Assembly (NCBI RefSeq): GCF_019393635.1
Contig: NC_057863.1
Coordinates: forward strand, 490,520,948-490,584,947
Direction of reading: 5' to 3'
Source: Dromiciops gliroides
Taxonomy: Eukaryota
DNA length: 64,000 nt
The position numbers were made by a program, and so were the translations under genes. The notes under the pieces were generated by a model. That model was not told the DNA's origin. It saw only the letters and a list, made by a program, of their open reading frames with translations, and made no database searches. This document shows positions 18,102 to 62,788 of this stretch, piece after piece (positions within the stretch are counted from its first letter, which is position 1; each line of letters opens with the position of its first letter).

Positions 18102-18336
18102 CTAAAGGTATTCTGAATATACCCAAATTCCTGGATCTAGGCAAATGAATGGCGGGGAATGGTTCCCAAGGGTTTTTTGGTTCTGGTTCATTGTCAATTC
18201 CAGCCTTTTCACAAGCAATTGGCCATGTTTGGTCCTCCAAAAGATGTAAAATGTTTTATTTGCACTTGAAAGAGCCTCAATCAGCCATTTCACCATCTCT
18301 ATCTTTGCCCCTTTAGACTTAAAACTTTGCTGAAAT
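18102..18336 (-). CDS. PARP4: PARP4 terminal coding exon, including the TAG stop at 18102-18104. Encodes (R)FQQSFKSKGAKIEMVKWLIEALSSANKTFYIFWRTKHGQLLVKRLELTMNQNQKTLGNHSPPFICLDPGIWVYSEYL*.
   Basis: Acceptor ttccttttTAG|A. The frame continues from the previous exon (phase 2). It matches the human PARP4 C-terminus (…NIPWAFEAIKQASEWVRRTEGQYPSICPRLELGNDWD…). No canonical AATAAA lies within ~600 nt downstream. A variant AGTAAA lies at ~17481-17486 (-). Confidence 0.7.
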
Positions 18337-18384
18337 CTAAAAAGGAAAAATCCTTAAATAAGGATCTAAATTTTGCAATGGGAA

Positions 18385-18680
18385 GGTAGGTGATGAAGTG
18401 GATAGAGCACTAGCCCTGAAGTTGGGAGGACTTGAGTTCAAATCTCACCTCAAACACTAGCTGTGTGGCCCTGGGCAAGTCATTTAACCCCATCCTGATA
18501 TACATATATACATATACATACACACACATATATGTATGTATATCTTACTACTGGACCCAGACAGCCCTGGAGGAAAGAGTGAGGTTGATGATTTTGTACA
18601 GCCCTGCCTCACTTAAATCCAATTCACTGCAAGTCATGACATCACCCCAAGGTCATGGAACTCTTTGAGAATGAAGGGCA
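18385..18680 (+). mobile_element. tRNA-derived SINE of the long subfamily (same as 9500-9790).
   Basis: ggtaggtgatgaagtggatagagcactagccctgaagttgggaggacttgagttcaaatctcacctcaaacactag… then ctactggacccagacagccctggaggaaagagtgaggttgatgattttg…. Confidence 0.6.
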
Positions 18681-18745
18681 TGTTCTGCAATATTCTGGAC
18701 ATAGTCCTACAATATAGGCCAATTTAAACTTTAATTTAATATAAC

Positions 18746-18893
18746 TGGGGGGCAGCTACGTGGTGCAGTGGATAGAGCACTGGCCCTGGATTCAGGAGGA
18801 CCTGAGTTCAAATCCAGCCTCAGACACTTGACAATTACTAGCTGTGTGACCCTGGGCAAATCACTTAACCCCAAATGCCTCACCAAAAAAAAA
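18746..18893 (+). mobile_element. SINE1/MAR1-type SINE, near-consensus, with a perfect 16-bp TSD (aatttaatataactgg).
   Basis: GGGGGGCAGCTACGTGGTGCAGTGGATAGAGCACTGGCCCTGGATTCAGGAGGACCTGAGTTCAAATCCAGCCTCAGACACTTGACAATTACTAGCTGTGTGACCCTGGGCAAATCACTTAACCCCAAATGCCTCACC + A9. Identical 16-mer on both flanks. A second 24-bp motif (ctacaatataggccaatttaaact) also appears on both sides. Confidence 0.9.
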
Positions 18894-19574
18894 TGGAATT
18901 TAATATAACTGGTCTACAATATAGGCCAATTTAAACTAACCCCATAACATAGGACATAGGACTTTACCTCTATATTATCTTAGAAGAAGAGCTAATGTTT
19001 CTATATTGCTTTAATATTGCTTTTGCAAAATATCTTCTAGACCTCATCACACTTGAGTCTCACCATAATTCTGTGAAGGGTTCCATGACTTGCTCATGGG
19101 TCCTAAAGCTTAGTGAGTATCAGAGACAGGATTTTAACACAGTTCTCTGCTAACCTCAAGTCCAAAACTCTGTAAACTACACTGTACTGCTTGAAAAAAT
19201 TAATAAGACCATAAGAAAAATGTCTCACCTACGTAAGAAGAAAAACGGATTCCAGGGACTGTACAAGTACTCATTTACATAGTAATAGGGCAACAAGAGG
19301 TTCCCATTCCCAATCATTTATTGAAACACATTGCCAAAAGATCTCTACGTGCTCATATTCATTGACCTAATCATTTTTACTACATCTGCTGCATGTCCTT
19401 GAAAGCAGTACACCTGATTATCTTTAAAATATTACATAATTCAGATTGGCTTTTCCTCAATCAAAAAAAAAATTTTTTTATTGGGTACCTACTATTCATT
19501 CAGAGAGGTCAAAAAGGATGTGAACTAAAAAAAAGGTCACTGGATTTAGCAATTAGGAAGTTGATGGTACTGGG

Positions 19575-19717
19575 TTGTTTTGGTTTTGGTGAGGCAATTG
19601 GAGTTAAGTGACTTGCCCAGGGTCACACAGCTAGTAAGTGTCTGAGGCCGGATTTGAACTCAGGTACTCCTGATTCCAGGGCTGGCGCTCTATCCACTGT
19701 ACCACCTAGCTGCCCTG
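19575..19717 (-). mobile_element. SINE1/MAR1-type SINE, reverse orientation.
   Basis: ggtgaggcaattggagttaagtgacttgcccagggtcacacagctagtaagtgtctgaggccggatttgaactcaggtactcctgattccagggctggcgctctatccactgtaccacctagctgccc. Confidence 0.85.
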
Positions 19718-20465
19718 TCAATGGTACCTTTTGGACACAGCAGTTTCTGTAGAGTGGTGATATCAGAAGCCAGATTATAAGAGGGTGAGGGATGAGGTGT
19801 GAATAGGAGATAAGGAAGTAGACACATCAAATGGAAGCTTTACAGTGAAAGCAGAGAGAGAGAAAGGAAGATAGCTTTTTGGGGTGCAAGGTGGTTTTTT
19901 TTAAGATTGTGATTAGCACCATACTAAATTCTATGAGGTAGAAAGAAGCAACTTGTTAGTCTTATTTAAAGATGTTTTAATACTGTCTTACGGTTAGAAG
20001 TGGGGAAAAGAGAAAGGAGAGAGAGGCTAGAATCTAGTAGAGGGATAGTCATTGAAAAACCTCTCTAGTAGAAAAACTGTACTATTATGGATTTGGATCT
20101 GGAAAGTCCCTTAGAGGTCATCTAGTCCAGAGGTGTCAGCAGAAGGACAAATATACCTTGACCAGCAGTTCATTACTTCTCCCAACCATCAGTTTAGTGA
20201 CTAACAGTCATAATATATATCTTCCAGGGGGAAGATGAAAAATCCCTCTCTCTCAGAGATCTTTATATGCTTAGGAGTGTAGGAGGGTTTCTTAAAGTTT
20301 CATTTAATCAATGTTTAAATATAAAATTGAGCTGCTTCTTGAAAGCAAGGATTATTTCATTCTTTATATTTATATTTCTAGCACCTAGCAGGGTTCCTGG
20401 CTCAAAGAAGGCACTTAGTAAATGCCTGTTGATCGAATGATTGCTCAATACTGTCTAAAGCATAC

Positions 20466-20598
20466 CTGTAAGCAGCTGAATCATCTAATTTCATCAGTGA
20501 CTTGACTGCTATCCCTTCTAGCTCCAGCTTAGTTCGAATGAGCTGTAGTACCAGAAATGTGGCAATCAGCTGTAATACATCTTCTTTTCCTTTGGAAC
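20466..20598 (-). CDS. PARP4: PARP4 penultimate coding exon. Encodes (G)SKGKEDVLQLIATFLVLQLIRTKLELEGIAVKSLMKLDDSAAY(R).
   Basis: Acceptor cttttcttttAG|GTTCC, donor TACAG|GTATGC. Matches human …GVKGRECLLDLIATMLVLQFIRTRLEKEGIVFKSLMKMDDASISR…. Phase 1 in, phase 2 out, consistent with the neighbouring exons. Confidence 0.85.
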
Positions 20599-22271
20599 CT
20601 AAAAGAAAAGTCCTAACAGTCATTTCCAACTGAAAATATTAATACCACTAAAATATGAAGACATGATAGTAGATCATGAAACAATATGCAGAATGGCACT
20701 CTGAAGAAACATTCTGCAGAACACATTTAATTTAATGTACTTAATATTAAATAAGAGTAATATACAAAAGTGACACTCACTATGTTATGTCACCACAAAG
20801 ACAGCCAAATTTGTCACCAAGTCCTGAAAATAGTACTCCACATATGGTCTGACCATTTTGATGTATAATAGGACTATCACCTGCCATGTTCTCACATGAT
20901 CATCACAGCCTCATTTGGGCCCTTAATAAAGTCTAGCATAGAGTCTTGCAGTTGTCTCATATTTGCTCTTCCTGCATCCCACAACTTCCCTCTCTAATTC
21001 ATGTTTGACATGTCTGCCAAATTAATATTACTGAAACAACAGGTTATTTCTCATTTTCCTGCTCAAAAACTTCAATGGCTTCCTGTTCCTAGGAGAACAT
21101 ACAACCTCTCCTCAGGCTGACATTTTCTTTCTTTGTAAATGTTTTCTTGATGCCTTTTTTAAAAGATCACTGTCATTTCTCAGTGTCTCTCCACCCCCAC
21201 CCAGAAAGAACCTTCTCTGAGTTCTTGTTAGAGTCAAGCAAAACAAACCAACAATACATTGTCAATCTGACTTTTGAAGCACTTTCAGTCTGGCTCTGGC
21301 CTCTTTTTACAGATTTATTCCCCATTATTCACTCTATATTCCAAAGTGGCTCACTTCCTGTGCTTAGGACATAACATTCTGGCTTTCATCTTTGTACCCC
21401 AGGCTGCCTCCCTGCCTAGAACACCACCTCCCTTTTTGCCTTTGCCTCCTAAGATGTTATCTTCCTTCCAAGGTTTTGGCTCTTCCTGATGTTATTGTTC
21501 CCATAAATGTTAATGCTTTCTCTTCTCAAGTGATCATTTATTTACTTCTCTGTGTCCATGCTGTACCCCACCCCCAGTAGACTAGAGGACAGAGATTGTT
21601 TCATTTCTGTATTTCCATGACCTAACAGCATGCTTTGCACACAAGCTTAATTGACACTTATTGACCAATCACAAAGAGAGGCATAAATTCAGATATCACT
21701 TTGGACTATAACTTTTCAGCATTTCCCCCTGAGAGGTAGTGGAATTAAGCCAAAGTCTATGTTTAGCCTAGAGACTAGTGGTTTGCCAATCTGTGTTTAT
21801 TAGCATTCTTTTGATCACAGGACCATAGGTTTGGAGTTGGAAGGGATATCAGAGATCATCTAGTTCTATTGCCTCATTTTACAGCTGAGAGAACTGAAGC
21901 CTAGAGAGATGAAGGGATTGCTCAAAGTCACCCAAGCAGTAACAATAGAGAACGGTTCAAACCCACACCCTCTTAACTCCAAATGCCCCCTTCTTTTCAC
22001 TGTAGCACATTTTCTCTTCCCAGTTGAGGGTTTCAAATTCAAGAGACAAAATTTTGAATTTGTATCAATATCTTCCACCTAGCAATACAATCAGGATATT
22101 AACAATGTGAATCCTTTGACTAATTTCAAAGTATTTAACCATTTAAAAGTTTTAAGGGCAAACACAAAAATATATTTATTCTGAACACAGCACCCCCCAA
22201 ACTTCCTTTATATAAGTTAATATAAATATAATCATTCCATTTGATGAATACTAGAAAGGAACTGAGTTTAC

Positions 22272-22371
22272 CTAGGGATTGAATGCCTTTTTGTACAAGA
22301 AAGATGTTTACATTATTCACATTCAGGTTTAAAAAAAGCCCAAGTTCAGGGCTAAGTTTCCAGAAGCCCTC
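22272..22371 (-). CDS. PARP4: PARP4 exon. Encodes EGFWKLSPELGLFLNLNVNNVNIFLVQKGIQSL(G).
   Basis: Acceptor ccccttaattttacAG|GAGGGC, donor CTAG|GTAAAC. Matches human …EDGFWKLTPELGLILNLNTNGLHSFLKQKGIQSLG… in the MVP-interacting region. Confidence 0.85.
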
Positions 22372-23644
22372 CTGTAAAATTAAGGGGAAAATAAAGAATA
22401 ACAATTAGAATTTCATCTCATAATGAAAAAAGTAATGAATTTTACATATTTTAATTCATTAATTTTATGTTTTAATTCAATCAAGATTTTAAAAAATCTT
22501 TATTTCTACAGTGTTAAAATACATGAGTCTAATACATCTTACTAATGAAAATATGATACCACACTGTAATTTTTTGAATACTACAAAAATTAAAGTAATG
22601 GTAGATAATATAAAATACTTGGGAGTCTACTTGCCAAGACAAACCCAGGAACTCTATGAACACAATTACCAAACACTTTTCACACAAATAAAATCAGATC
22701 TAAATAATTGGAAAGATATCAATTGCTCATGGATAGGCAGAGCTAATATAGTAAAAATGACAATTCTACCTAAATTAATTTACTTATTCAGTGCCATACC
22801 AGACTACTTAAAAATTATTTTATAGGGCTAGAAAAAATAATAACAAAATTCATCTGGAAAAACAAAAAGTCAAGAATATCAAGGGAAATAATGAAAAAAA
22901 TGCACAGGGAGGTGGGTTAGCTGTATCAAATCTGGAGCTTTACTATAAAGCGGCAGTCATCAAAACTATCTGGTACTGGCTAAGAAATAGAGTGGAGTAT
23001 CAATGGAATAGGCTAGGCACAGGAGACACAGTAGTATATGACATTAGCAATGGAGTGTTTGATAAACCCAAAGACTCCAGCTTCTGGGATAGGAACTCAG
23101 TATTTGACAAAAACTGCTGGGAAAACCGGAAGATAGTATGGCAGAAATTAGGCATAGACCAACATCTTACACCTTATACTAAAATAAGGTCAAAATGGGT
23201 ACATGATTTAGACACAAGAGGTGATACCATAGGTAAATTAGGAGAGGAAGGAATAGTCTACCTTTCAGATCTTTGGAAAGGAGAACAGCTTATGACCAAA
23301 CAAGAGACAGAGAATATTATAGAATGCAAAGTGGATGATTTTGATTATGCTAAATTTAAAAGGTTTTGTACAAACAGAAGCAATACATCCAAAATTAGAA
23401 GGGAGGCAGAAAGCTGGGAAACAATTTTTATAGCCAGTACTTCTGATAAAGGCCTGATTTCTAAAATATATAGGTAACTAAATCAAATTCATAAGAACCC
23501 AAGTCATTCTCCAATTGAGAAATGGTCAAAGGATATGAATAGGCAGTTTTCTGATGAAGAAATCAAAGCTATCTATTCCCATATGAAAAAATGCTCTAAA
23601 TCACTATTGATTAGAGAGATGCAAATTAAAACAACTCTGAGGAG

Positions 23645-23805
23645 GGGGTGGCTAGGTGGTGCAGTGGATAGAGCACCGGCCCTGGATTCAGGAGTACCTG
23701 AGTTCAAATCTGGCCTCAGACACTTGACACTTACTAGCTGTGTGACCCTGGGCAAGTCACTTAACCCCCATTGCCCTGCAAAAAACAACAACAAAAAAAA
23801 ACCCC
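23645..23805 (+). mobile_element. SINE1/MAR1-type SINE nested inside the L1 ORF2, with TSD aactctgagg.
   Basis: GGGGTGGCTAGGTGGTGCAGTGGATAGAGCACCGGCCCTGGATTCAGGAGTACCTGAGTTCAAATCTGGCCTCAGACACTTGACACTTACTAGCTGTGTGACCCTGGGCAAGTCACTTAACCCCCATTGCCCTGC + A-rich tail. It splits the L1 frame …IKTTLR|…|YHLTPVR. Confidence 0.9.
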
Positions 23806-24529
23806 CAACTCTGAGGTACCACCTGACACCTGTCAGATTGGCTAATATGACAAAAAAGGAAAATAATAAATGTTGGAGAAGCTGTGAAAAAATTGGAACA
23901 CTAATGCATTGTTGGTAAAGCTGTGAACTGATCCAACCATTCTGGAGAGCAATTTGGAATTATGCCCAAAAGGCTATAAAGCTGTACATACCCTTTGACC
24001 CAGTAATACCACTTTTGGGTCTTTTCCCCAAGGAGATTATAGAAAAGGGAAAAGGACCCACATGTTCAAAAATATTTATAGCTGCTCTTTTTGTGGTGGC
24101 AAGGAATTGGTAATTGAGGGGTTGCCCATCAGTTGGGGAATGGCTGAACAAGATGTGGTATATAAATGTAATGGAATTCTATTGTGCTATGAGAAACAAT
24201 GAACAGGAAGAGTTCAAAGAAACCTGGAAGGACTTGCATGAACTGATGATAAGTGAGATGAGCAGAACCAGAAGAACATTATACACAGTATCATCAACAT
24301 TATGTGGTGATCAACTGTGATAGACTGGATTCTTCTCACCAATACAATGCTACAAGAAAGTTCCAGGGGACTCATGATGGAAAAGGCTCTCCGGAGGAAA
24401 ATCCAGAAAAAAAAAAAGAACTATGGAATATGGACGCTGATTGAACCATACTATTTCTTTTGTTTTTGGTACTGTTGTTTTTCTATTTTAAGGTTTTTCC
24501 TTATTGCTCTGATTCTTCTCTTATAGCAT

Positions 24530-24640
24530 GACTGTTGTTATGTATGTATATGTGTATGTATACATATCTATGTATAGATATGTATATGTATATATACATG
24601 TGTGTGTATGTGTGTATATATATATATATATAGGATTTCC
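24530..24640. repeat. TA/TG-rich low-complexity microsatellite in the L1 3' UTR.
   Basis: Direct read: gtatgtatatgtgtatgtatacatatctatgtatagatatgtatatgtatatatacatgtgtgtgtatgtgtgtatatatatatatata. Confidence 0.85.
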
Positions 24641-25372
24641 TGTTGTCTGGGGGAGGGGGAAGGGAGGGGAGGGAGGGAGAAAAATTTGAAATTTGAAATC
24701 TTACGTAAACAAATGCTGAAAGCTATCTCTACATGTAACTGGAAAATAACTGAAAACCTCTACCTGGCCCATATGGAACTTTGGGCATCCTGATCTCCAT
24801 CCAAACGGAGGGATTCTTAGTGGTTTAGAGATAAAAAAATACTAAGACAGGCAGAGACACAGGTTAAAGGGCAGATATTTATGCAGGCCTGACCTTTAGA
24901 ATGTTACTGGTATGGTCGATCACTTATCATCAGTGTTGCCAATAAAATTAATAATTATAGCTAATGAGCTTGGCTTTATTACCACTACAGGAGTTGAATA
25001 TATAGAATGTCCATCTTCTTAGTCTATGATAGGATGATTTTGTGACTGTTATTACATTTGGAAACCTATCTATATTCTAAAGAGATGATACATGGAAAAA
25101 TATACATGCTATAGATAGACATATATATATATTTAAGATTATACTTACAACAAAGAATTTATACTTGGCTATGGTTCATCATATATAAACTAAAAAACTT
25201 ATTTAGAAACAAAATATCAGCCTAGAGCCTCAGAAAATATGCCTAATTCCATGGCCTTTGCACTGATCCTAATTTTTCCTTAAGAGGAACAGCAATGTCC
25301 AATAGCACAGTATGTTAACCAGCTGGGACAAGCAGTCACTATCAGAGAAAGATGTAGAGGAAAGACAGATAC

Positions 25373-25474
25373 CTCACTTTGAAGACTAAAAACCTGAGTC
25401 CAAAACACCACATTCTCTTTAATACCATTCAGCCAACTTTCTCTGTGGGTCATATAAGTCTGGGGTGTTTGTTT
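25373..25474 (-). CDS. PARP4: PARP4 exon. Encodes KQTPQTYMTHRESWLNGIKENVVFWTQVFSLQSE.
   Basis: Acceptor tttatttttgcttttcAG|AAACAA, donor AGTGAG|GTATCT. Corresponds to human …IQHWQDAVPWTELLSLQTE. Phase 0/0. Confidence 0.75.
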
Positions 25475-25570
25475 CTGAAAAGCAAAAATAAAGTCAGTAC
25501 AAGAATTTTTTCATGTTAATGGTTATACAGATCTAATCCAAGTTTATGTTTCCATAACACATTGCCTTAC

Positions 25571-26674
25571 CTTAGCAATTGATGGAGTAACATGCTGTAC
25601 TACAAAACTCTTCTCTGTAAATGAGAAAGCCGGAGTCTCTGCTTCTGATCTAGTATATTTGCATGGAGAAAATGAACGCTGATGGGGCCATGGCAGTTGT
25701 TCGTCATTTTCCATTTCAAAAATATGTTCATGACTTGATGAATCCACTTGAATTTTTTTTCCAAATAATGATGAGCTTGTATAATCAACAACTGCAGGGG
25801 AGGCAGACTGCTCCTTAAGTGCTAAAAGTGATTGATTCATTCTCTTAGATCTTGGAAATGAGTCCACCTGAGACCTAGGACAAAGTTTGGCAGAACCAGG
25901 AAGAGGAGGAGGAGGTGGAAGAGGAAGAAAAGAGTGAGAACTAGGAACAAAAGAACAAGGAGAAAAAGAAGAGCCAAGACTACGATGAGAAGCAGCAAGA
26001 GGAGTCTGATGGGAAAGAAAAGAAAAACGAAGTGGAGGAGGAAGAGGAGCAGGAGGAGGAGGAGGAGAAGGTGGTGGTGGAGGAGGGGAGCAGGAGACTG
26101 AAAAAGAAAAGTTTTGGGGAAGAAAACTAGGAGTAGGGAGGGTACTAGTAGGTAAGGCAGAGTCTGAATAAAGGGAACAGGAGGAATTGGAAATTGAGAG
26201 ATTAGTCAGAGGAGGAGGAAGGGGAGGGGGAAGAATTGGAGAGAAAAGAGTGAAAGGGGTTGCAGAGTGCTGATCCTGTTCTTCATGTTTACTAAATAAA
26301 AATGTTGCATCTGAATCTTTCTTAGTTAAATCTAACGCTTTGGCATTGCCATACTGGTCAGAAGCAAGGAGGAACTTGTCTGCTGATGGTTCTGGTAATG
26401 CACCAAAGGAAAGCTCTAAGAAATGAGATGGAGCAGAACAGAATTCCTCCATAGGAGAATCCAATGATAAATCCTCAGCCATGCTTGAGCAAAAGTCTAG
26501 TTGAATTTCTTTTTCCGGCCTGCCCTGGAAACCTTGTGGTGCTGAATGTTTCTTCAAAGGAGAAATAATGTCTGAAAAAGTAGTGTTCCTTGACCTTAAC
26601 TGAAAAACAGCTGAAACTTTTTTAGGAGCTGTAGAATGTTTTTGCTTCTTTCTTTTGGAATATTTCCTCTGAAC
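25571..26674 (-). CDS. PARP4: PARP4 large exon, 1104 nt or 368 codons. Encodes a lysine-rich segment followed by a long proline/serine-rich low-complexity region.
   Basis: Translation VQRKYSKRKKQKHSTAPKK…PPPPPPSPPPPPAPLPPP…VTPSIAK. Acceptor tttccctttccttcatgaaataccacAG|GTTCAG, donor AAG|GTAAGG. It lies mostly inside the 337-aa track ORF 25544..26557, whose M is really a TTG. Collinear with the human PARP4 region SKRKHRKIPFSKRK…proline-rich…. Confidence 0.8.
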
Positions 26675-27399: not shown

Positions 27400-28165
27400 A
27401 CTACTAACTTGATTTTCTCCTTTTAGAAAATTAAATTAAATAATGATTTCTCTATTTCATTTTTTCACAAAACCAACTCCTAATTTTATTTATTAATTTA
27501 ATGTTTTTTTAAGCTTTCTATTTTATTAATCTCTTCTTTGATTTGTAGGATTTCTATTTTGGTAACTACTTAGGGATTTTTAATTTGTTCCTTTTCCTAG
27601 TTTTCTTTAGTTGTATGCCCAATGCATTGATTTGCTCTTTTTCTCTTTTATTGATGTAAGTAAGCATTGAGACATATAAATTTCCCCCTAAGTTCTGCAT
27701 CTCACAAATTTTGGTACATTGTCTTATTGCTATCATTTCTTTAATAAGTTTATTGATTATTTCTAGGAATTGTTCTTCAACCCATTCATTTTTAAGATTA
27801 AAATATTTAGTTTCCAATTAATTTTAATCTATGCTTCAGAGGCCTCTTATTGAATAGATTTTTATTGTATTATCTGAAAAGGATACATTTAATATTTCAA
27901 ATTTTCTTCATTTTTGAGCTTTTTAATGCCCTAATACAATTTATGTTTGATTTTTTATGAAGATGCAATCAACACCTGAGAAAAGGTATGTTTGTCTCTT
28001 TTTCTATTCAGAGATCTCTCCAGAGATCTATCATACCCAACTTTTCTACAGTTCTATTATCTTCTTATTGCCCTTTTAATTTTCTTGAAATTTTTTCTGT
28101 TTTCTTTCACAATCTAACTAATATGGAAATGTTTTGCATGAGAAAAATCTTCCCCTCCCCACTAT
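27400..28165 (+). mobile_element. LINE/L1-like fragment. It ends in an L1 3' UTR motif (…ttttctttcacaatctaactaatatggaaatgttttgcatga…).
   Basis: The 3' end, ~28000-28165, matches the L1 3' UTR consensus seen at 46200-46440 and 53640-53860. The upstream part is T-rich and L1-like but diverged. Confidence 0.45.
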
Positions 28166-28974
28166 CCTCCAGCAAGGACATTGATGGCTCTTGACTCAGC
28201 GGCTGTGACTGGATTGAATACTTTAAGAATCACACAGGGACATATACGATCACTGTTTGTTCAGTGACAATTCTCTCTTCAGATTCGCTCAGGAGGCTCC
28301 TCTGGAGCCATCTGGGTCCAGTGGCAAGATATAGATCAGAATGACTGGAGATGGCCAGTACCTACATTCTCCTCAGATCACCCACACATTATATAGAAGG
28401 TAGAAAACTAGAGGTGAATGTAATGACCAAATTCCAGTTTTAGAATAAAATAGATTTTGTATTTGTTTTCACTATGAAAAAAAGAGGAACAATAGCATAT
28501 GTGGAACTGGGGCACTGACAATGCAATCATGGCAATTAATGATACTTTACTATAACTATTTTGATAGAGATGGGTATAAGGACTGGGCCTGTGATGTTAA
28601 TGCACATAAAATTCTCCGATGAGGAAATTCCCACTACCATTGCAGGTCGGTACCTCTTCTGTAACTTACCGTCTTCAGAGAGTTGCCCTGAGCTCTGATA
28701 TTAAGTAACTTGCCCAGAGTCGCATAGCCAGTATTTATGTGTCAGAGGCTGAACTTGAAGCTGGGTTTTCCTGACTTCGAGGCCAGCTTCTATTCCCTGT
28801 GCCATACTGCCTCTCTCCTTAGAAAAGTAAAAACGTTTTTAAAAGCCTTTTCAATGTAGCTATGGTGCTCTGGGAATTGAATAACAAAATAAGAGTCCTT
28901 GATGCATACTTTCATACTCCTTGTAGAGCTGGGGGTGTAGTACAAAGACTATCAGCTCTCTCTTTAATATCAAT

Positions 28975-31900
28975 CTAAATGACATCTATTCATATCTTCT
29001 ACTCTGAAATGTCAGTCAGTCAGTCAATAAACATTTATTAAATATCTACTTTGTGCCAAGAACTATGCTAAGTGCTAAGGATACAAAAAGGGGCAAAAGA
29101 TAGTCTCTGCTCTCAAGGAGCTCACTATCTAAAGGGCAGGGGGGAGATGGTAAGCAAACAAATGCGAACAAACAAGCAGAAAAAAAACCTCTGTGTGTGT
29201 GTGTAGGAAATAATTAGAGGGAAGGTGATAGAATTAAGAAGTGTTGGGAAATGCTTTCTGCAGAGGATGGGATTTTAATTCGGTCTCAGAAGGAAGCCAG
29301 AAAACCAGGAGGCTTCCCAGAGATGAGTAGAAAAAGCATTCCAGGGATGGAGGACAGATAGAGAAAATGCTGGAGCCAAGAGATAGAATGTCTTATTTGA
29401 GGAACAACAAGGAGGCCAGTGTCACTGGACTGAAGAGTACATGGTGTAGAATAAGCTGTAAAGAGATGGGGAAATGGTGGGGCAGGGGGAAGGGGTTAGG
29501 AAATGAAGGGCTTTGAATGACAAACAGAAGATTTTGTATTTGATCCTGGAAGCCACTGGAGTTTACTGAAGAGGGGTGGTGGTGACATTATTGGACCTGT
29601 GCTTTAGGAAAATCACTTAGACAGCTGAAGGGAGAGACTCAAGGCAGGCAGACCCACCAGCAGGATATTGCAGGAATCAAGGTGTTGTGGCCATGTTGCA
29701 TTTAAAATATCTACAGAACAACCAGTTGAAGATGTCTGAAAGGCAGTTAGAAATGAGAAATCGTAGGTCAATAGAGAAGTTAGGGCAGGAAAAGTAGATT
29801 TGAGAATCATCAGCATAGAAACGCTAATTAATTCTATGGGAACTGATGAGATCATCAAGTGAAGTGCTACAGAGGGAGAAGAGAAGAAGGCTGAACTCTA
29901 AGGAATACCTACAAGTTAGAGGACATGATCTGGAGGAGGATGCAGCAAAAGAGATAGGTTAAAAAGGTAGGAAGAAAATCAGGAGAGAGTGGTGTCCTGA
30001 AAACCTAGAGACAAGAGAGGACGAGATTGTGATCAACAGTGTCAAAGACTACAGAGAAATCAAGGAGAATGAGGATTAAGAAAACTGGATTTGGCAACTA
30101 AGAGGATCCTCAGTAACTTTGGAAAGAGCAGTTTCGGTGGGATGGTGAGGTCAGAAGCTCAACTGTAAAGTGTTAAGAAGTGAGCAAGAGGAGAGAGAGT
30201 GGAAGTACCTATTGTAGATGGCCTTTTCAAGGAGTTTGGCTATAAAGGGAGAAGAGATATAGAATGATAGGATGGAAGGATCAAGAAAGGGTATTTTGGA
30301 GATAAGGTAGACACAGACATGTGCCTAGGTGGAGAGGAAGGAGACAGTAGACAGAGAGACAATGAAGATAAGTGAGAGAGTAAGAATGAGAAGGGGGCAG
30401 TCTGTTGGAGGGTATGGGACAGGATAAGATAGTTTATGGAAGGGTATACTTTGAGAAGGAGCAAGACTACCTCATCATGTGAGACAGGGGTGAGGGAAGA
30501 AATAGTACCAGGGAGGTCAAAATAAATAGCCTCAATTTTTTTGTAAAATAAAAGGCAAGGTTCTCTGATGAATGGGTGCGGGCAGGGAGGTATGAAATTG
30601 AATGCAAAGATTTGGAAGAACTGCTATGGAGAGTATGAGACAATGATTCGATTGGGGAGGTACAGAAGAACTGCCTAGTGGCAGTGAGGGCCCAGTTAAG
30701 GTTATCTCCACTGTCATTCAGCAGCATGGGTGTCAGAGTTAAGGGAGCCAATGGTAGGAGTCATCTAAGGCTGAAGCTTGCTTGGGAGGATACAACTGTT
30801 GATATGATAAGGGGGCCAAGGACTCAAGAGAAGAAAAGTATAGAGTTGAATTAACCAAGGGATCAAGATGTAGAAAATCCCCCAGTACAGGAGATATGGC
30901 CTGGGAGAGAACTGAGAGGTAGAGAGACTGGAGGTCATGATGTGAAAAAGGACTAGAGTTTGGTAAGGGAAGGCAGATGAAGAGGCAGAAAGACATTAGA
31001 TTATGGTCAGATATGGGGACTTCACAATTCTTGACTATGAAGATGGTTCATCTGTGGGGGATGGGAAGATCAAGAGTAAAATCATCTATGTATGTAGCTG
31101 AGGTGAGGTGGAGGAGTAGGACATGGCAAGTAGGTTGACTGAAGAACTGAGTGGTTAGGATGCTTGAGGGAGAATCAATATATATATGTTGGAGTCCCCT
31201 AGTAGGAAAAGAGGAGTTGAATAGGAGAGAAAAATTGTGAACCAGGTACCAAACTCTTTTAGAAAGGAAGGAGAGTGAACTAGACATCTGTAGACAACAT
31301 TTACCTGGATTTTGATAGAGTGGTAAATATGAATAACATGGACCTTAAAGGAAGAGAGATTACTTAAAGATAAAGGTAGGGACAATGAAAGTGGCATTGA
31401 GGAGCAAGGAATATTCTAATTCTTCTGCCTTAACCTGTGAACTGAGGGCAATAAACAAAGGTGCAGCCAGTACTGGAAAAGGTGCAGCCAAGGAGGCTGT
31501 GTCATCAGGAGGGAGTCATGTTTCAGTGATTACTAATTGCCAAAAGGGATGGGAGAGGAAAAGTTTTAGGAGGAAGGGAAATTTGTTGCCTATGGAAGAG
31601 GTATTCCAAATGGCCCAGTGGAAGGGGGGGGTGGGGTCTGGTTGGGATTTGGGGGTAGCAGGGTTGAGGACAATGGGAAAGTGGGGTTCAGAATCATTGG
31701 TATACGTAGGTCTAACCATATGAGAGAATGTTCATCACTGAGTGGAAGGCAACATTCCTCTTTACAGAGGAGGCTAGGGATCAGGCAAGAGACAAGTATA
31801 TGAAATGGAAGACATTTGGTTAAATATTCAGATGGGAGGCCTTATTTCACCATTCCTCTTCACTCCAAAGGCTGGAATGCCATTATATTTATTTTCTGTA
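28975..31900 (+). repeat. Long (~2.9 kb) copy of the unclassified interspersed repeat family (CAGTCAGTCAATAAACATTTATTAAATATCTAC… 5' motif).
   Basis: Extensive sequence similarity to 3700-4260, 34300-34900 and 45540-46950. The purine-rich low-complexity sequence produces spurious ORFs on both strands. Confidence 0.55.
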
Positions 31901-32139
31901 TCATTTATTCTAGGAATTAATCATGATATTTTATACTGTTATTTAAATGATTCATAAACACACACACATATATATATACATATGCATAAAATATGTGTGT
32001 ATATTTATACATAAAATTTCCCCTTCTGGATATGGGTACTATATAAATTATTTGACAGCAGGAACCATTTCTCTTTTTTTTTTCATCATTTAAAGAACCT
32101 TGCACAGTTCAGTAGATAGTTGTTGAATTTAATGGAGGA

Positions 32140-32830: not shown

Positions 32831-32855
32831 AAAGTTGTGGGAAAAGAACACAGTT

Positions 32856-33030: not shown

Positions 33031-33153
33031 CTCCACCATTGCATATTCTGGCTGTTCCACTTCCCAATCCATATATGGCAGAAAGTCTATATCTTCTGTG
33101 GTGATAAGTTCCAAAATATTTGGAGTGTAGGGATCCAGTGATTTATTGTCATC
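33031..33153 (-). CDS. PARP4: PARP4 exon. Encodes DDNKSLDPYTPNILELITTEDIDFLPYMDWEVEQPEYAMVE.
   Basis: Acceptor cacttgtttttactcAG|GATGAC, donor GTGGAG|GTAAGT. Matches human DENESPFPDIPKVSELIAKEDVDFLPYMSWQGEPQEAVRNQ. Confidence 0.85.
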
Positions 33154-36638: not shown

Positions 36639-36734
36639 CCTTTTTTCAACTGCCACAAAACTTGTAAATTGTGTTATAATAGAGTTCTCCTTGCTGAGTT
36701 TAATAATCATAGACTTCAAAATTTGCTTCTTCAT
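36639..36734 (-). CDS. PARP4: PARP4 exon. Encodes MKKQILKSMIIKLSKENSIITQFTSFVAVEKR.
   Basis: Acceptor ccttccaaccTAG|ATGAAG, donor AAAAGG|GTAAGT. Matches human (E)MKKQTLKSLIIKLSKENSLITQFTSFVAVEKR. Phase 0/0. Confidence 0.85.
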
Positions 36735-38199: not shown

Positions 38200-38280
38200 C
38201 TCATGTTTTGTTTCATCCTCATGGAGTATTCCATCTTCATAATCTCTGATGATCGCTCTAGCTGTTAACTTGTGAAGCAT
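38200..38280 (-). CDS. PARP4: PARP4 exon. Encodes MLHKLTARAIIRDYEDGILHEDETKHE.
   Basis: Acceptor ccccgaaatgTAG|ATGCTT, donor CATGAG|GTTTGC. Matches human MIHKLAARALIRDYEDGILHENETSHE. 81 nt, phase 0/0. Confidence 0.8.
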
Positions 38281-41831: not shown

Positions 41832-41912
41832 AGTTCCAGTTGTTTTCTGTAATTCGGTAGTTGATACCATTGTGTGAAATTCTCTGTCTTGAATGAAAGC
41901 ATGTAGGATGGC
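41832..41912 (-). CDS. PARP4: PARP4 exon. Encodes AILHAFIQDREFHTMVSTTELQKTTGT.
   Basis: Acceptor cctcttttttttccaatgtcatccAG|GCCATC, donor GGAACT|GTAAGA. Matches human ATLCALIQEKEFRTMVSTTELQKTTGT. 81 nt, phase 0/0. Confidence 0.85.
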
Positions 41913-42162: not shown

Positions 42163-42333
42163 CTGTGTACAATGAGGGATGAATCCATACACAAGCAGTC
42201 TATCATTGTTGAATAAGGCCTGAATTTCCGTGGGAGCCTGAATGGGCTCTGGTGAATTTAGATTTAGTTGCTGCCATTTAATAGACACAGAGCTGCATCC
42301 TGGAGAAAATATTCTTGTTATCTGGTCTTCAAT
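42163..42333 (-). CDS. PARP4: PARP4 exon. Encodes IEDQITRIFSPGCSSVSIKWQQLNLNSPEPIQAPTEIQALFNNDRLLVYGFIPHCTQ.
   Basis: Acceptor tctttttccttcgtaaaTAG|ATTGAA, donor ACACAG|GTGAGG. Matches human IEDQMTRLCSPSCHSVSVKWQQLNPDVPEALQAPAQVPSLFLNDRLLVYGFIPHCTQ. 171 nt, phase 0/0. Confidence 0.9.
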
Positions 42334-47158: not shown

Positions 47159-47312
47159 TCTTTTTTTTTTTTTTTAAGTGAGGCAGTTGGGGTTAAGTGA
47201 CTTGCCCAGGGTCACACAGCTAGTAAGTGTTAAGTGTCTGAGGCCGGCTTTGAACTCAGGTACTCCTGACTCCAGGGCTGGTGCTCTATCCACTGCGCCA
47301 CCTAGCTGCCCC
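47159..47312 (-). mobile_element. SINE1/MAR1-type SINE, reverse orientation, with a 14-bp TSD (agtagagRgaattc). It lies inside the spacer of the inverted repeat.
   Basis: T15 then aagtgaggcagttggggttaagtgacttgcccagggtcacacagctagtaagtgttaagtgtctgaggccggctttgaactcaggtactcctgactccagggctggtgctctatccactgcgccacctagctgcccc. Confidence 0.9.
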
Positions 47313-47757: not shown

Positions 47758-47857
47758 CTGTTTTTTCCAACTATATTTAGATTTTGTGTTAAAGAATTCA
47801 AATGCTCCAGCACCATACTGTGACAAAGTCCTTAGGATATGACGATTTGCAGTGGAC
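47758..47857 (-). CDS. PARP4: PARP4 exon of 100 nt. Encodes (G)STANRHILRTLSQYGAGAFEFFNTKSKYSWKKQ.
   Basis: Acceptor aaatttgaccAG|GTCCAC, donor AAACAG|GTAAGT. Matches human GSTANRHVLRILSQCGAGVFEYFNAKSKHSWRKQ. Phase 2 in, phase 0 out. Confidence 0.9.
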
Positions 47858-48555: not shown

Positions 48556-48743
48556 CCAATGCCACATGTAAATATGCGGGTGTGTCTAACATTTCTTTTT
48601 ACAATCTGCAATGTCAGGCTCTCATTCTGGATATGCCCATCAGATAGAAGAAGAATGTTGCGCATCCCTTGAGAAGGATAAAGTAAGTTTAAAAATCGAA
48701 GGATTTTCCAGAAGTCAGTATTTCCCATGGTAGGTGTAGCAGA
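48556..48743 (-). CDS. PARP4: PARP4 exon in the vWA domain. Encodes SATPTMGNTDFWKILRFLNLLYPSQGMRNILLLSDGHIQNESLTLQIVKRNVRHTRIFTCGI(G).
   Basis: Acceptor cttttcattttttccAG|TCTGCT, donor ATTGG|GTAAGT. Matches human SATPTMGNTDFWKTLRYLSLLYPARGSRNILLVSDGHLQDESLTLQLVKRSRPHTRLFACGIG. 188 nt, phase 0 to 2. Confidence 0.9.
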
Positions 48744-49960: not shown

Positions 49961-49972
49961 AAAAAGAAAGTT

Positions 49973-50040
49973 TTTTACTCACCATAATAAACTCTGTCAG
50001 TTTAGGGTTGCTTGTGGAGTACTTAGGATATGGAAATAAT
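49973..50040 (-). CDS. PARP4: PARP4 exon of 68 nt. Encodes (T→S)FTELFPYPKYSTSNPKLTEFIM.
   Basis: Acceptor aaatttcattatacAG|GTTTTA, donor ATTATG|GTGAGT. Matches human GYKELFSYPKHITSNTMAAEFIM. Phase 1 in, phase 0 out. Confidence 0.85.
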
Positions 50041-52471
50041 TCTGTAAAACCTGTATAATGAAATTTGTTTGAAACTTCTATTAAATATTTATCCACAGTA
50101 TCATCATAGGATTCTATTTCTGTCAATAGAAATGTCTTAGACACTTGTTTATATACATTTATTGAGTTGGGCCTCACTTTTAGGACATCGTATTTATAAA
50201 AATCTTAATTTGTAATTAAAACAGAGGAATGACCTATGAGGGCCAGTCCCAGGGGCATGCACATGGATGTTTGGTGAATCCATTTCTAGAAATTCACGAT
50301 GATGTAGAACAAAAGTGTGTAGTTCTCCACTAAACACTGGTAAATGCTTCTTCTGTGACTGTTCCTGTGTACTTGCTGCAAGGTGAAGAAAGGCCTTTTG
50401 ACAAGGGGCTGAATAGAAACTGAGAGTTCATACAAAAGGCCCTAATACAAAAACTCCTTTTTCCCTTCCCCCTGGCCATTAGATATGAGGATGCCTCTGA
50501 TCTCTGGAGAGCCAGTGGTGAGGAGGGAGGTATCCTTTTCCCCTTTCCCCTTACCAGGTTAGCTGGTGAGTGTATGGCTTTGAAAGCAAGTCTGTATCTG
50601 GGATGGGGTTGCCTCCTGTTTATATTTTCTATTTGTTGGTACAGGACTTTCTGAGACTTTGAAAGGTCTAAGGATCAGAGGTCTAGTGACAGGTTACCAT
50701 ACTAAAGTTTGCTGACACTAGCTGAGAGCATCAACACCATCCTGAGAAACAACTCAGCCCAGTAGCGAATGTAAACATCCAGCTAGGATGCTCTCACCCT
50801 GAGCTGAGGGATCTACGTGGTCCAGTCTTAAAGTAGTTGCCTTGTTCCATCTAAATGTCATTGTCCAGCAGTAGTATCTACCAAGTCTTGTGGGGAGCCA
50901 GCACAGCCACCAAGTGACTTCACAACTCATCCCAGCAGAAGCCTGGCCCCTCCAGTGGAGATATTACATCTCAGTGTGAGTAAAGCCAGATGAGCTACTG
51001 GTGCCCTGGAGACCCCAGACCGTGTGAGGACCTAGCTCAGCTGAGCAGCAGAGTCCTTCATCCATCCCCAGTACTGAGCCTTCCTCACCACCAACACTGA
51101 GAGCACCCTCCAGAAAAAAGAAAGAATGCAGAGGCTCTGTAGCTTCATCCTTGTGAAGTGCCTTGGCCACCTATGTTCCCAACATGTGCACCTCACTGCT
51201 ATTGTGTTTTAAATTCATACTCACTCTTCTCCTCTTCCTACCCCCCCCCCCGATATATTTGGGGCAGAGTCTGCTGCTGGTGTTGGGGGAAATGCTTGGT
51301 AATTACAGTCGTTATATCATACGACTAAAGAACTGACTTTGCAGGAGTAAAGATGAGTGTGCCAGTGGAAGCACCTCTGGGGCAGTATTAGAAGACTCTC
51401 TGCCCACAGGATTCCTCTTAGAACCCTCAAGCAGTAGCATCCAAGCCTGTGGGTTTCCAACCTGCCAGCACCAGTAAGAGCTGGGCAAGTGAGACTTGAG
51501 AGGCATTAAAAAAAAAAAGATAAATTAAGGGGTAGCAAAGAGATTCAATTAACAATTTTGCCAATACATTTCCACCACAAAATCACTCATGTAGAACTCA
51601 ATTATAATGTAAAACAAGGTGTGTCTATATCTAACATGGCCCTTTATGTTTCTATAAAAATAGTAGGGCTGCACGTCCCCCTCTAGTTCTCCCAAGCATT
51701 CAGATTACTTGGCCAACACTAAGGCACAGGAGAAACTGTAAGTTTATGCCTTTCTCAGAATGATGTGGGCACATGGACTGATGGAGCACAGAGACCCATT
51801 TTCTCCTGTTCTATGTATCTTGCCTCCTCTTTAGAAGCAGTGCCTGATCCTCTTTCTCTTATGACTTTCACTGTCCCCACCTGGTGTAGAAGATCTGATT
51901 ACATATCTTTTAATAGCATTATGTTCCTCAAATAGAACTACAACCTAACAGTATCCCAAGGGATCTTAACCCCTTTTATGCCATGCACCCTTCTGGCAGT
52001 CTGGAGAAACCTATGGGGCCTTTCTTTAAAGGCTTTCCATTTAAATAATGGAAAGAAACACTAAATTAAGGTTAGAGGTTAGGAAAAATAAAAATGTGAT
52101 TTTTCTTCTTCCCATCTGAGTTCACAGACCCTCTGAATTATCCACAGATGCCAGGTTAAAAATTCCTGTTGCACAGACTCAGAATCCCAGAGTTGAAAGA
52201 GATCACAATCCAACCTGTACCTGGACAGAAGTTTTCAATATGACATACTCCATTATTGTTATCCTGCTTCCATTTAAGGTCTCTAGTAACAAGGAGCCCA
52301 CTACCTCTTGAGGGAGCACACTACACTTTCTGACAATTCTAATACTTCTAATACTAATACAGTTGCAAATTTTCCCATCAAGGTAATTCACATCCTTCCT
52401 TTTCACTCTTACCTTTTCAGTTTAATTTTAGAAAGTCATAATGTCAGAGCATAAAATAACAGAAAACTTAC

Positions 52472-52667
52472 TTGTGCCAAACTTGATAACATTTATTTTT
52501 TGGTTCTCGTGGATGAGAGACAGAGCATGTAAGGCAATTTGTTTTGCTTGCAGTAATTCTGAGCCCTCCATAGAGTTGGAGCAATCCAGGCAAATAATAA
52601 CTTCACTAGTAGGGGTCTCTTCTGGCAATGCAGTACTGAAGTCTGGATGGAACACAAGCATGCAGGC
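52472..52667 (-). CDS. PARP4: PARP4 exon, start of the von Willebrand factor A domain. Encodes ACMLVFHPDFSTALPEETPTSEVIICLDCSNSMEGSELLQAKQIALHALSLIHENQKINVIKFGT.
   Basis: Acceptor ctccttcTAG|GCCTGC, donor GGCACAA|GTAAGT. Matches human ACMLVFQPDLDVDLPDLASESEVIICLDCSSSMEGVTFLQAKQIALHALSLVGEKQKVNIIQFGT. The vWA metal-binding motif is present (D-x-S-x-S). Confidence 0.9.
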
Positions 52668-58417: not shown

Positions 58418-58565
58418 TTTTTTGTTTTTTGCGAGGCAATTGGGGTTAAGTGACTTGCCCAGGGTCACACAGCTAGTAAGTGTTAAGTGTCTGAGGTCAG
58501 ATTTAAACTCAGGTCCTACTGACTCCAGGGCTGGTGCTCTATCCATTGTGCCACCTAGCTGCCCC
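58418..58565 (-). mobile_element. SINE1/MAR1-type SINE, reverse orientation.
   Basis: T-rich run then gcgaggcaattggggttaagtgacttgcccagggtcacacagctagtaagtgttaagtgtctgaggtcagatttaaactcaggtcctactgactccagggctggtgctctatccattgtgccacctagctgcccc. Confidence 0.85.
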
Positions 58566-58850: not shown

Positions 58851-59224
58851 GAAAAAGGTGATCATTATAAATTAATAAGAATTCAACAAGAACAAGGTGG
58901 CTCACTCTAACCTCATTTCTGTACTTAATAGGATTAATTCACATGTGGTAGAACGAGAGAATGTAAAAGACATAGTATAATTGGATTTCCATAAAGTATC
59001 TGACAAAATTTTCCATGATATGCTTGTTGACAGGATAGAGAAATGATGCATGGTAAAAGAATAGGATCACATAATTGTAGCACTAGGAGGGGCTTCAGAG
59101 GACATCTAGTCTAACCCCTACTCAAAGCATGTAACCCCTATATAATAGTTTTGACAAGTGATCATCCATCCTTTTCTGGAAAACATTGAGTGATAGAGAA
59201 CTCTATCTCTTAGTTTTTGGACAG

Positions 59225-59445
59225 CTCTAATTGAGTGGTGGTGTAGTGGATAGAGCATGGGGCCTGAAGTCAAGATAACTTGAGTTCAAATCCAGTCTCA
59301 GATACTTACTAGCTGTGTGACCTTGGGCAAGTCACTTAACCCTGTTTGCCTCAGTTTCCTCATCTGTCAAATGAACTGGAGAAGGAAATTGCAAACTACT
59401 CCAGTATCTTTGCCAAGAAAACCCCAAATGGAGTCATAAAGAATC
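59225..59445 (+). mobile_element. Older MIR-type (CORE/MIR-like) SINE with the characteristic 3' domain …ggagaaggaaattgcaaactactccagtatctttgccaagaaaaccccaaatggagtc…. Similar copies at 39675-39840 and 35590-35700.
   Basis: tRNA-like head gagtggtggtgtagtggatagagcatggggcctgaagtcaagataacttgagttcaaatccagtctcagatacttactagctgtgtgaccttgggcaagtcacttaaccc… plus the conserved MIR-like 3' domain. Confidence 0.65.
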
Positions 59446-60419: not shown

Positions 60420-60557
60420 CTCACTTTCCTTGTTTGGGTGCTTTTCAACCCACATTCTTGGGAGGTAAGCCTCTCCTATATGGATCTGAAGAGAGAAGCC
60501 TTTGCTGTCTAAGGAACTGTTATCCAAAGTACTGATTACAGCTTTGCAGTCTGTTCT
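60420..60557 (-). CDS. PARP4: PARP4 exon. Encodes RTDCKAVISTLDNSSLDSKGFSLQIHIGEAYLPRMWVEKHPNKESE.
   Basis: Acceptor tttcttttgttgtaTAG|AGAACA, donor AGTGAG|GTAAAT. Matches human RTDCKAVISTMEGSSLDSSGFSLHIGLSAAYLPRMWVEKHPEKESE. 138 nt, phase 0/0. Confidence 0.9.
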
Positions 60558-61038
60558 CTATACAACAAAAGAAAAAACAATATTTGATTTTGTTGAATAT
60601 TGTCCATTTTTCCCAGTCATTACAGCATAACATTATTTTCAAAGCAGGGTTTAAAGGAGAGCTAAAAATAAATTCTGAAGTTATGGGTTTCTGATCAGTT
60701 GAAAGATATTAATTCTTAGGGCAAGACTTTCATTTCAGTCACATTCAGGTATATCATGAAATTAAAAATTTGTATTTATCTACATAGCCAAAATAAAGTA
60801 GAAAATAACACTTTTAATTAAGTCATTAGGTACGTAGACTGTCCTCCAATATGCCTTTCTTTAAATTATCTAGTGTGGTCCAGAATATACCTGAAAGTCA
60901 CATTTTAAAAAACTTATCTTACAATTTAAAAATCTTACAAATGAGTCTCACTGATGGTAACCTTTATAATAGACATTTTTACAAATATGAAATGATTTAA
61001 AAATATAGATAATAAAGTTTTAAAAAAGACTTACATAC

Positions 61039-61117
61039 CTTTAGTTTGAGTTTATGTGTATCACTGGTAATTAATTCAATTATATGTGGCATCTCAATTG
61101 ATATATTTAAAGAGAAT
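61039..61117 (-). CDS. PARP4: PARP4 exon of 79 nt. Encodes (R)FSLNISIEMPHIIELITSDTHKLKLK.
   Basis: Acceptor ttttttcttcatatttgaTAG|ATTCTC, donor CTAAAG|GTATGT. Matches human SFSLTMSIEMPYVIEFIFSDTHELKQK. Phase 2 in, phase 0 out. Confidence 0.85.
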
Positions 61118-61289
61118 CTATCAAATATGAAGAAAAAAGGAATTCAATTTAATATACAGAAAGATATTACTTTCCTTCACATACTCTAGTTTTCAGCAAA
61201 AATATACTACAAGTTGTCCTTCAGATTTTATATGCTAGCTACTAGTGTTTCCCAAATTACCTTGTATTTATTTTGAATATACTGATATG

Positions 61290-61600
61290 TGCTGTTGTCT
61301 CCTCTACTGAATGTAAGCTCCTTGAGGGAGGGACTATTTCATTTTTGTCTTTGTGTTCATGGATTGATCACACCCTTTAGAATTCACACAGGCTATCTCC
61401 CATGCCTAGAATACATAACCTTTTCATTACTCCTTTGTAAGCCTTATCAGCTAAGTTACCATCTCCTTTGCAGGATATTATTTGATTCCCTCCATCCAAA
61501 GGTATTCTCTCCCCTTAAAATTTTGCTAGAACACTTTGGAGTTCTTCTTTGCTCCTATGAAACTTGGCCTTGTATCAAATACTTATATGTATATACTGCT
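61290..61600 (+). repeat. Interspersed repeat of the family also seen at 1080-1400, 5100-5900 and 44700-45250 (…gaatgtaagctccttgagggcaggga…-type element). Intronic.
   Basis: Shared blocks such as aatgtaagctccttgagggagggactatttcatttttgtctttgt… and …ctcctttgcaggatattatttgattccctccatccaaag… recur at several places in the window. Confidence 0.45.
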
Positions 61601-61701
61601 TTTCAAATGGAACCTTAAAATATTAAACTAATGTCCATTAAATTCAGTCACTGAAATATTAAGGCTCTATATTTTATATGTTAAGGCTTTAAGCAACTTA
61701 C

Positions 61702-61748
61702 CGTTGCTGCATTCCTAATTCCTTAATACAAACTTTATCCACTGTATC
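61702..61748 (-). CDS. PARP4: PARP4 exon of 47 nt. Encodes DTVDKVCIKELGMQQ(R).
   Basis: Acceptor gttcttattttgacAG|GATACA, donor CAACG|GTAAGT. Matches human DTVEKICIKEIGTKQ. Phase 0 in, phase 2 out. Confidence 0.8.
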
Positions 61749-62047
61749 CTGTCAAAATAAGAACATTATCATGAATTTTCAGAGTGAGTTTAATAGAACA
61801 ATTGGCATATAAAGAAAATGCTAGGCCACTGAATATACTCACATCAAGTAAACTCCTGGTAACATAAATAATGCTATCAGTTTGTGACTTTGCACATCTG
61901 CAAACATTTCCATGGTTTGCAAATGTTGTCCTTTGTGAAATAGGAGTCACTGTCAATTCAACTAATTATTGAGCAATATACTCAGAAAAGTTAATGAAAT
62001 AACAACTAACAGCAAACATTTATGTAGTACTTACTATATGCTAAGCA

Positions 62048-62210
62048 CTTGACAATTCTCTCTCTCTCTCTCTCTCTGCAGGGCAGTGAAGTTTAAGTGT
62101 CTTGCCCAGGGTCACACAGCTAGTAAGTGTCAAAATCTGAGTCTGGATTTGAACTCATGTCCTCCTGAATCCAGGGCTGGTGCTTTATCCACTGCTGCCA
62201 CCTAGCTACA
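62048..62210 (-). mobile_element. SINE1/MAR1-type SINE, reverse orientation, preceded by (CT)n. TSD ctgacaatt.
   Basis: (ct)10 then gcagggcagtgaagtttaagtgtcttgcccagggtcacacagctagtaagtgtcaaaatctgagtctggatttgaactcatgtcctcctgaatccagggctggtgctttatccactgctgccacctagctaca. Confidence 0.85.
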
Positions 62211-62623
62211 CTGACAATTATTATCTCTTTTGATCCTCTTAACAATTCTGGGAGGTAGGTAATATTATTAACCCCATTTTACAGATAAAGAAATTGAGGT
62301 GAACAGGTAAAGTGACTTGCCCAGGGTCATATATCTACTAAGTATCTTCAGGGGGGATATGAAATCAGGTCTTCCTGACTCTAAGCCTGATGCTCTCTCT
62401 GCCATACCATTCTAGCTGCCTCTAATTGCTACTGATATTCAAAAGAGGGCAACTGAAAATAATTTTTTTCTCATTTTTCTCACTGTCATATATGCTAAAT
62501 TCTGTTATCTTCAGGAAACGTTACCTATTTATACCAAGGACATTAGATTCCTTTTGATAATTAATTTTAAAACTATAACTCCAAAGAAAATATCACTTAA
62601 AATGTAATGTTAAATAAACAAAC

Positions 62624-62788
62624 CTGCAAGTTTTCAGTTAAAGCTTTGTCCTGCTGCCATGGTGCTACAGTAGCGGGCATGAAGAAGTTGGCACATCCAT
62701 GATGAAAACTGAGCTCAGTGATATAGGTAATTTTGATAAGAACTTTGGCCTGTGGTGGTAAGTTTCCAATGCTCACAGTAAAGACATC
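62624..62788 (-). CDS. PARP4: PARP4 exon, C-terminal part of the VIT (vault protein inter-alpha-trypsin) domain. Encodes DVFTVSIGNLPPQAKVLIKITYITELSFHHGCANFFMPATVAPWQQDKALTENLQ.
   Basis: Acceptor ataatgtttccatttcAG|GATGTC, donor TTGCAG|GTTTGT. Matches human DVFTVSVGNLPPKAKVLIKITYITELSILGTVGVFFMPATVAPWQQDKALNENLQ. 165 nt, phase 0/0. Upstream exons lie beyond 64000, or are undetected in 62800-64000. Confidence 0.85.

Follow-up and report, generated by a model that had tools for sequence, protein, structure and literature searches.

Where does the coding sequence of the vault ADP-ribosyltransferase gene, PARP4, end in a 64,000-nucleotide (nt) stretch of contig NC_057863.1 of Dromiciops gliroides, and how much of the gene does this stretch (hereafter the window, positions 1 to 64000) contain? 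A first-pass annotation, made from the letters of the window without database searches, had assembled 18 minus-strand segments into the 3' part of PARP4, closed by a TAG codon at 18102. We can say with high confidence that the minus strand of the window carries the 3' 59% of an intact vertebrate PARP4 orthologue, with 18 coding exons extending from 62788 to 15010 and 1057 residues corresponding to human 712-1724. The real terminal coding exon, 15211-15010, closes with a TAA stop, which puts the end of the coding sequence at 15010, 3 kb past the limit given by the first-pass annotation. PARP4 is an already known gene and there is nothing unusual about the locus.

Gene identity and the exon chain

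The reference PARP4 proteins used were human PARP4 from PDB and a number of partial or distant database entries. When the stop-free pieces of the minus strand were concatenated and compared with PDB, the strongest match was full-length human PARP4 (11jf_P, 9bw6, 9bw7; 1724 amino acids, aa) with an expectation value (E) of 3.1e-159, and human PARP4 was the sole strong PDB match of the pieces and of the finished model. A protein database search with the same concatenated pieces yielded only partial PARP4 or PARP4-like proteins with VIT and vWA Pfam domains. The partial PARP4 references, used in tblastn, located minus-strand homology blocks at 62788-62624, 61116-61027, 60557-60417, 52667-52470, 50054-49983, 48755-48555, 47856-47737, 42342-42160, 41933-41832, 38280-38197, 36734-36639 and 33171-33037. 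An unexpected block was found at 15201-15013, downstream of the range covered by the first-pass annotation.

Splice sites were enumerated around each homology block and one consistent chain resulted (Table 1). Its introns are bounded by GT and AG in 17 of 17 cases, fourteen of the donors having the form GTRAG or GTAAN, and exons 1-17 end in phases 0,2,0,0,1,0,2,0,0,0,0,0,0,0,0,1,2. These phases are exactly those listed in the first-pass annotation, whose 17 AG/GT-bounded segments do join in one frame. Exon 2 is the single PARP4-like candidate among 34 AG..GT segments of the required phase. A donor for exon 13 at 33037 and an acceptor for exon 14 at 26668 were dropped in favour of sites with better consensus, which also give the nucleotide total of the first-pass annotation.

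The first 507 model residues, encoded by exons 1-13, align to human PARP4 712-1218 with zero gaps across 12 splice junctions (E = 2.7e-253), and these 12 junctions are therefore validated. The last 158 residues of the model align to human 1569-1724, that is, to the final residue of the human protein (E = 1.5e-63); this alignment spans three junctions and has a single 2-residue indel. Both values are far beyond chance. The gene, the strand and the number of exons had been correctly recognized. In comparison with the orang-utan PARP4-like isoform X4 (P0032), the identity per exon is 51-91% in exons 3-13 and 64-74% in exons 16-18, and the sole indel consists of 2 residues in exon 18. The match to human PARP4 had been described as residue by residue; this applies to human 712-1218 and 1569-1724 but not to the stretch of roughly 350 residues between them (exon 14), where a forced global alignment gives only about 30% identity.

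The window holds the 3' part of the gene. A search for an upstream PARP4-like exon in 62789-64000 found none (best E 0.12), and the BRCT, catalytic and most VIT exons of PARP4 lie beyond position 64000.

The terminal coding exon

Exons 1-17 total 2972 nt. Joined to a 235-nt open frame at 18336-18102, they give 3207 nt and 1068 codons, which rebuilds the chain of the first-pass annotation exactly and reproduces its arithmetic. The correct product, with 15211-15010 as the last exon, has a coding sequence of 3174 nt, or 1057 codons plus TAA. The boundaries of the first 17 exons thus hold as annotated, whereas the 18th (18336-18102, ending in TAG) shows no PARP4 similarity. The check proposed with the first-pass annotation, splicing in silico and alignment to PARP4, places exons 1-13 and 15-17 on human 712-1218 and 1569-1659, whereas 18336-18102 does not align.

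The choice of the last exon follows from several comparisons. A single PDB query combined every stop-free segment of the minus strand in 14000-25600 that reached 30 aa, including both frames over 18067-18353. The piece at 22.3 kb matched human PARP4 residues 1579-1616, the piece at 20.5 kb matched 1615-1659, and 15013-15195 matched 1664-1724, up to the last residue, while the stop-free segments from 18067-18353 in the same query gave no match to human PARP4. The peptide encoded by 15211-15010 (RSCASYWNFYSVKKAVEWVRRTEAQYPSLCSRLELGKDWDSATKQLLGIQPISTRSPLHKVLNYSQG) matched primate-type PARP4 C-termini with E values of 1.2e-32 (P0031, from a read-archive assembly) and 3.8e-32 (orang-utan P0032). 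Against fish-type C-termini, represented by two named PARP4-like proteins of fish and a fish-like sequence, the values were 1.9e-16, 7e-14 and 1.4e-13. The Arg encoded across the junction of exons 17 and 18 is conserved in human. The last intron accordingly extends from 20465 to 15212.

We consider it extremely improbable that exon 17 splices instead to 18336 and that translation stops after 1068 codons, at the TAG of 18102. The acceptor at 18336 (tttttcctttttag/A) is the first good-looking one downstream of exon 17; it has a good polypyrimidine tract (0.72), fits the phase and is followed by 78 open codons before the TAG at 18104-18102. Yet the 78-residue peptide bears no resemblance to any of the PARP4 references, including those from human, orang-utan and fish (E 2.6 or worse), and a search of a protein database of 5.8 billion sequences found no homologue. 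No AATAAA or ATTAAA occurs within 1 kb downstream of this TAG, the nearest poly(A) hexamer being 1030 nt away, and a C-terminal exon of the right phase and perfectly conserved is located 3 kb further downstream. An ending at 18336-18102 would also remove the counterpart of human 1660-1724, including R1689, from a domain (MINT, see below) whose helices 7-8 are reported to bind the major vault protein, MVP (PMC12280208). Homology effectively refutes 18336-18102 as the canonical ending, and the candidate was ruled out as the terminal exon by the homology searches and the missing nearby poly(A) signal.

The same frame could still be a genuine minor, lineage-specific alternative terminal exon, used beside the canonical 15211-15010 and producing an isoform with a truncated MINT domain. 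The good consensus of its acceptor and the 78-codon frame speak for this possibility, as does the fact that 18102-18336 is unique within the window and not a repeat, the adjacent stretch at about 18380-18493 being a copy of a short interspersed nuclear element (SINE). We give it only a slim chance, as its peptide has no homologue anywhere in the protein database, no poly(A) signal is nearby, and chance alone would be expected to place open frames of similar size behind an AG. If it were real, the isoform would lack the last 65 MINT residues including R1689 and might not dock in vaults.

How common such frames are can be seen from the 10.4 kb that follow exon 17, where 724 AGs are phase-compatible, 38 of them open for at least 50 codons and 11 open for at least 66 codons. 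Candidates of at least 60 codons that also have a good polypyrimidine tract number three (18336, 15211 and 10237). The first-pass annotation took the mutual consistency of the phases as strong internal evidence that its chain lacked nothing between the VIT domain and the stop. Phase consistency is not strong evidence of completeness, because a terminal exon requires just an AG and an open frame, without a donor constraint, and the chain was in fact incomplete: its product would be without 65 of the 163 MINT residues (human 1660-1724), which are conserved, and would have 78 unrelated residues in their place. The lesson for the method is that perfect AG/GT boundaries and consistent phases yielded a hand-built chain with 17 correct exons but a false terminal exon, decoy frames being common. 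With the exon at 15211-15010, the vault-docking domain regains its 65 conserved C-terminal residues, and the 3' end of the coding sequence shifts from 18102 to 15010.

Table 1. Coordinates of the PARP4 exons and other features in the window (a slash in a splice site marks the exon boundary).
Feature	Position	Strand	Remarks
Exon 1	62624..62788	-	165 nt, phase 0 to 0; acceptor ttcag/GAT, donor CAG/gtttgt; VIT end; human 712-766, gapless
Exon 2	61702..61748	-	47 nt, ends in phase 2; peptide DTVDKVCIKELGMQQ(R) versus human DTVEKICIKEIGTKQ(S); gapless human alignment
Exon 3	61039..61117	-	79 nt, phase 2 to 0; 73% identity to orang-utan PARP4-like
Exon 4	60420..60557	-	138 nt; 78% identity to orang-utan PARP4-like
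Exon 5	52472..52667	-	196 nt, ends in phase 1; vWA domain start
Exon 6	49983..50050	-	68 nt, phase 1 to 0
Exon 7	48556..48743	-	188 nt, ends in phase 2; vWA core
Exon 8	47758..47857	-	100 nt, phase 2 to 0; vWA end
Exon 9	42163..42333	-	171 nt
Exon 10	41832..41912	-	81 nt
Exon 11	38200..38280	-	81 nt
Exon 12	36639..36734	-	96 nt; 91% identity to orang-utan PARP4-like
Exon 13	33031..33153	-	123 nt; gapless human alignment stops here, at residue 1218
Exon 14	25571..26674	-	1104 nt, 368 codons; Lys/Arg-rich start, then poorly conserved Pro/Ser-rich linker
Exon 15	25373..25474	-	102 nt; MINT domain begins in the 3' half (human from about 1569)
Exon 16	22272..22371	-	100 nt, ends in phase 1; human about 1583-1616; holds S1614 counterpart
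Exon 17	20466..20598	-	133 nt, phase 1 to 2; human about 1616-1659; holds K1618 counterpart
Exon 18 (true last)	15010..15211	-	199 nt plus TAA at 15012-15010; human 1660-1724; holds R1689 counterpart
Candidate polyadenylation signal AATAAA	14864..14869	-	140 nt past the TAA; consensus match only
Decoy open frame, outside the gene model	18102..18336	-	235 nt, TAG stop; in the last intron behind a good-looking acceptor
SINE examples	18380-18493, 15979-16108, 47188-47311, 58441-58564	both orientations across the window	

Domain order, linker and vault docking

The domain order proposed in the first-pass annotation (VIT end, vWA, Lys-rich linker, a Pro/Ser-rich segment of ~200 residues, and the MVP-interacting C-terminus) is confirmed by Pfam VIT and VWA matches, by composition and by the alignment of the MINT domain. 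The Pfam profiles VWA, VWA_2 and VWA_3 match model residues 165-319 above their cut-offs. Positions 90-111 of the 111-position VIT profile match model residues 1-22 with E = 0.0015; this match stays below the cut-off because the domain is truncated, only its last 22 positions being in the window. The MINT domain comprises human PARP4 1562-1724, as defined by cryo-electron microscopy of the vault-PARP4 complex, and its helices 4, 5, 7 and 8 together with residues S1614, K1618 and R1689 contact MVP repeat domains 3-5 (PMC12280208). In the alignment to human 1569-1724, the model has the human residue at each of these three positions, the counterpart of R1689 being located in the true last exon, and the MINT domain is recovered with exon 15211-15010 and not with 18336-18102. 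A Pfam profile search for PF26156, the C-terminal PARP4 family of precomputed annotations, gave no match, even for orang-utan PARP4; the MINT assignment consequently draws on the PDB alignment and on the published structure (PMC12280208).

The encoded product consists, in order, of the last strand or so of VIT, the vWA domain, about 190 residues of conserved sequence, the linker and MINT. The linker, encoded by one 1.1-kb exon, is a fast-evolving and disordered segment, Lys-rich at first and then Pro/Ser-rich, and the helical MINT domain would dock PARP4 onto MVP repeat domains 3-5 inside the vault cage. The sequence comparison shows the exon chain, its homology and the conserved MVP contacts; vault docking and the function of the encoded protein are what we infer from orthology.

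The first-pass statement that the region has no long open reading frame was inaccurate. Exon 14 is located within a 395-codon stop-free stretch (26731-25547), the longest in the window over six frames, with the runner-up at 221 codons. A stop-free run of this length has a probability of about 2.6e-11 per start, and exon 14 is therefore coding. The exon begins with a Lys/Arg-rich sequence (VQRKYSKRKKQKHS...) and includes a 200-aa stretch with 42% Pro plus Ser. Among the boundaries of the model, the exon 15 acceptor is the least secure, the intron preceding it being just 96 nt long. The length of this intron (25475-25570) is a multiple of three and it contains an in-frame stop at 25546-25544; retention of the intron would therefore truncate the protein ahead of the MINT domain.

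A further question is whether the locus is an unprocessed PARP4 duplicate or a pseudogene (a 'PARP4-like' copy) and not the functional orthologue. Several of the database relatives are named 'PARP4-like' and the gene is visible only in part, which would agree with such an origin. We assign it a very small probability, considering that 18 of 18 exons are open with every splice site canonical, that 507 residues align without gaps to human, that the MVP-contact residues are conserved, and that a probable exon 1 of MPHOSPH8 is located downstream of PARP4. Parp4 and Mphosph8 are presumably neighbours in mouse as well.

The interpretation as an intact orthologue, which we prefer, has several points weighing against it. 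Every junction is a prediction from sequence; the window covers no more than the 3' part of the gene, and intactness is seen for that part alone; and the comparison sequences all come from clades other than that of the source species. Both ends of exon 14 and the exon 15 acceptor were placed by splice consensus and frame only, and the exon 14/15 region aligns poorly to primates, with 18 residues of exon 15 facing a gap. There is also a second phase-compatible acceptor for the last exon, at 15199, whose use would cost 4 residues. This acceptor was rejected and 15211 retained: the phase at 15199 fits, yet its polypyrimidine tract is weaker and the junction Arg shared with human (…S-R-N-I-P-W) would be lost.

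Neighbouring sequences and comparison with known PARP4 proteins

The window is AT-rich (about 38% GC) with a CpG observed/expected ratio of 0.13, both as expected for a vertebrate genome. An ATG-initiated exon at 2074-2295 on the minus strand (MAAATGAGGG...EDEEDVFEVEKILDVKTEA, with donor GCG/gtgagt at 2073) has the orientation of PARP4 and is located some 12.7 kb downstream of its stop, within a GC-rich region (positions 1-4000, 49% versus about 38% GC elsewhere). The end of this exon matches the start of the chromodomain of M-phase phosphoprotein 8 (MPHOSPH8/MPP8), and the top three PDB matches are all MPP8 (best E 0.0033). Judging from these matches, 2074-2295 is probably exon 1 of MPHOSPH8 with its promoter. 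The putative MPHOSPH8 promoter or 5' region includes a simple repeat, (GGA)27, at 2584-2661, and a perfect (AG)24 is found at 12812-12859 in the intergenic region.

Approximately 35 diverged SINE copies are spread over the window in both orientations (roughly 120 nt, 70-80% identity), with translations of the form '...GQLGGAVDRAPALESGVPEFKSGLRHLTLTSCVTLGKSLNP...'. We take this ~120-nt element to resemble the abundant tRNA-derived SINE family of marsupials, which would fit a marsupial source. The window also has some fragments of the long interspersed nuclear element LINE-1 (L1). On the plus strand at 22992-23918, within the intron that separates exons 15 and 16, two frames of 161 and 127 aa resemble the C-terminal part of L1 ORF2, the second frame being broken by a SINE; by eye, this appears to be an L1 fragment that lies in the intron antisense to PARP4. 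A region with strong strand asymmetry (28001-32000; GC skew +0.30, AT skew +0.14) is found in the intron that separates exons 13 and 14. Its minus-strand frames give many low-complexity translations of Ser/Leu/Pro, and it is probably a large strand-biased interspersed repeat.

Among known proteins, the partial PARP4 entries in the database (orang-utan P0032, 934 aa; tuatara P0001; jaguar P0003; fish P0028 and P0033) exhibit the same exon blocks as the model, the tblastn matches corresponding to exons 1, 3-13 and 18. They differ from it by a divergence typical for distant vertebrate orthologues. Human PARP4 (VPARP) is collinear with the model over 712-1724. It differs most in the linker (about 1219-1568 in human, exon 14 here), which is strongly diverged and somewhat different in length, with 65 model residues opposite gaps, and the model has a 2-residue insertion relative to human at the junction of exons 17 and 18. 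The two proteins share the domain order of VIT end, vWA, disordered linker and MINT, as well as an identical C-terminal YSQG.

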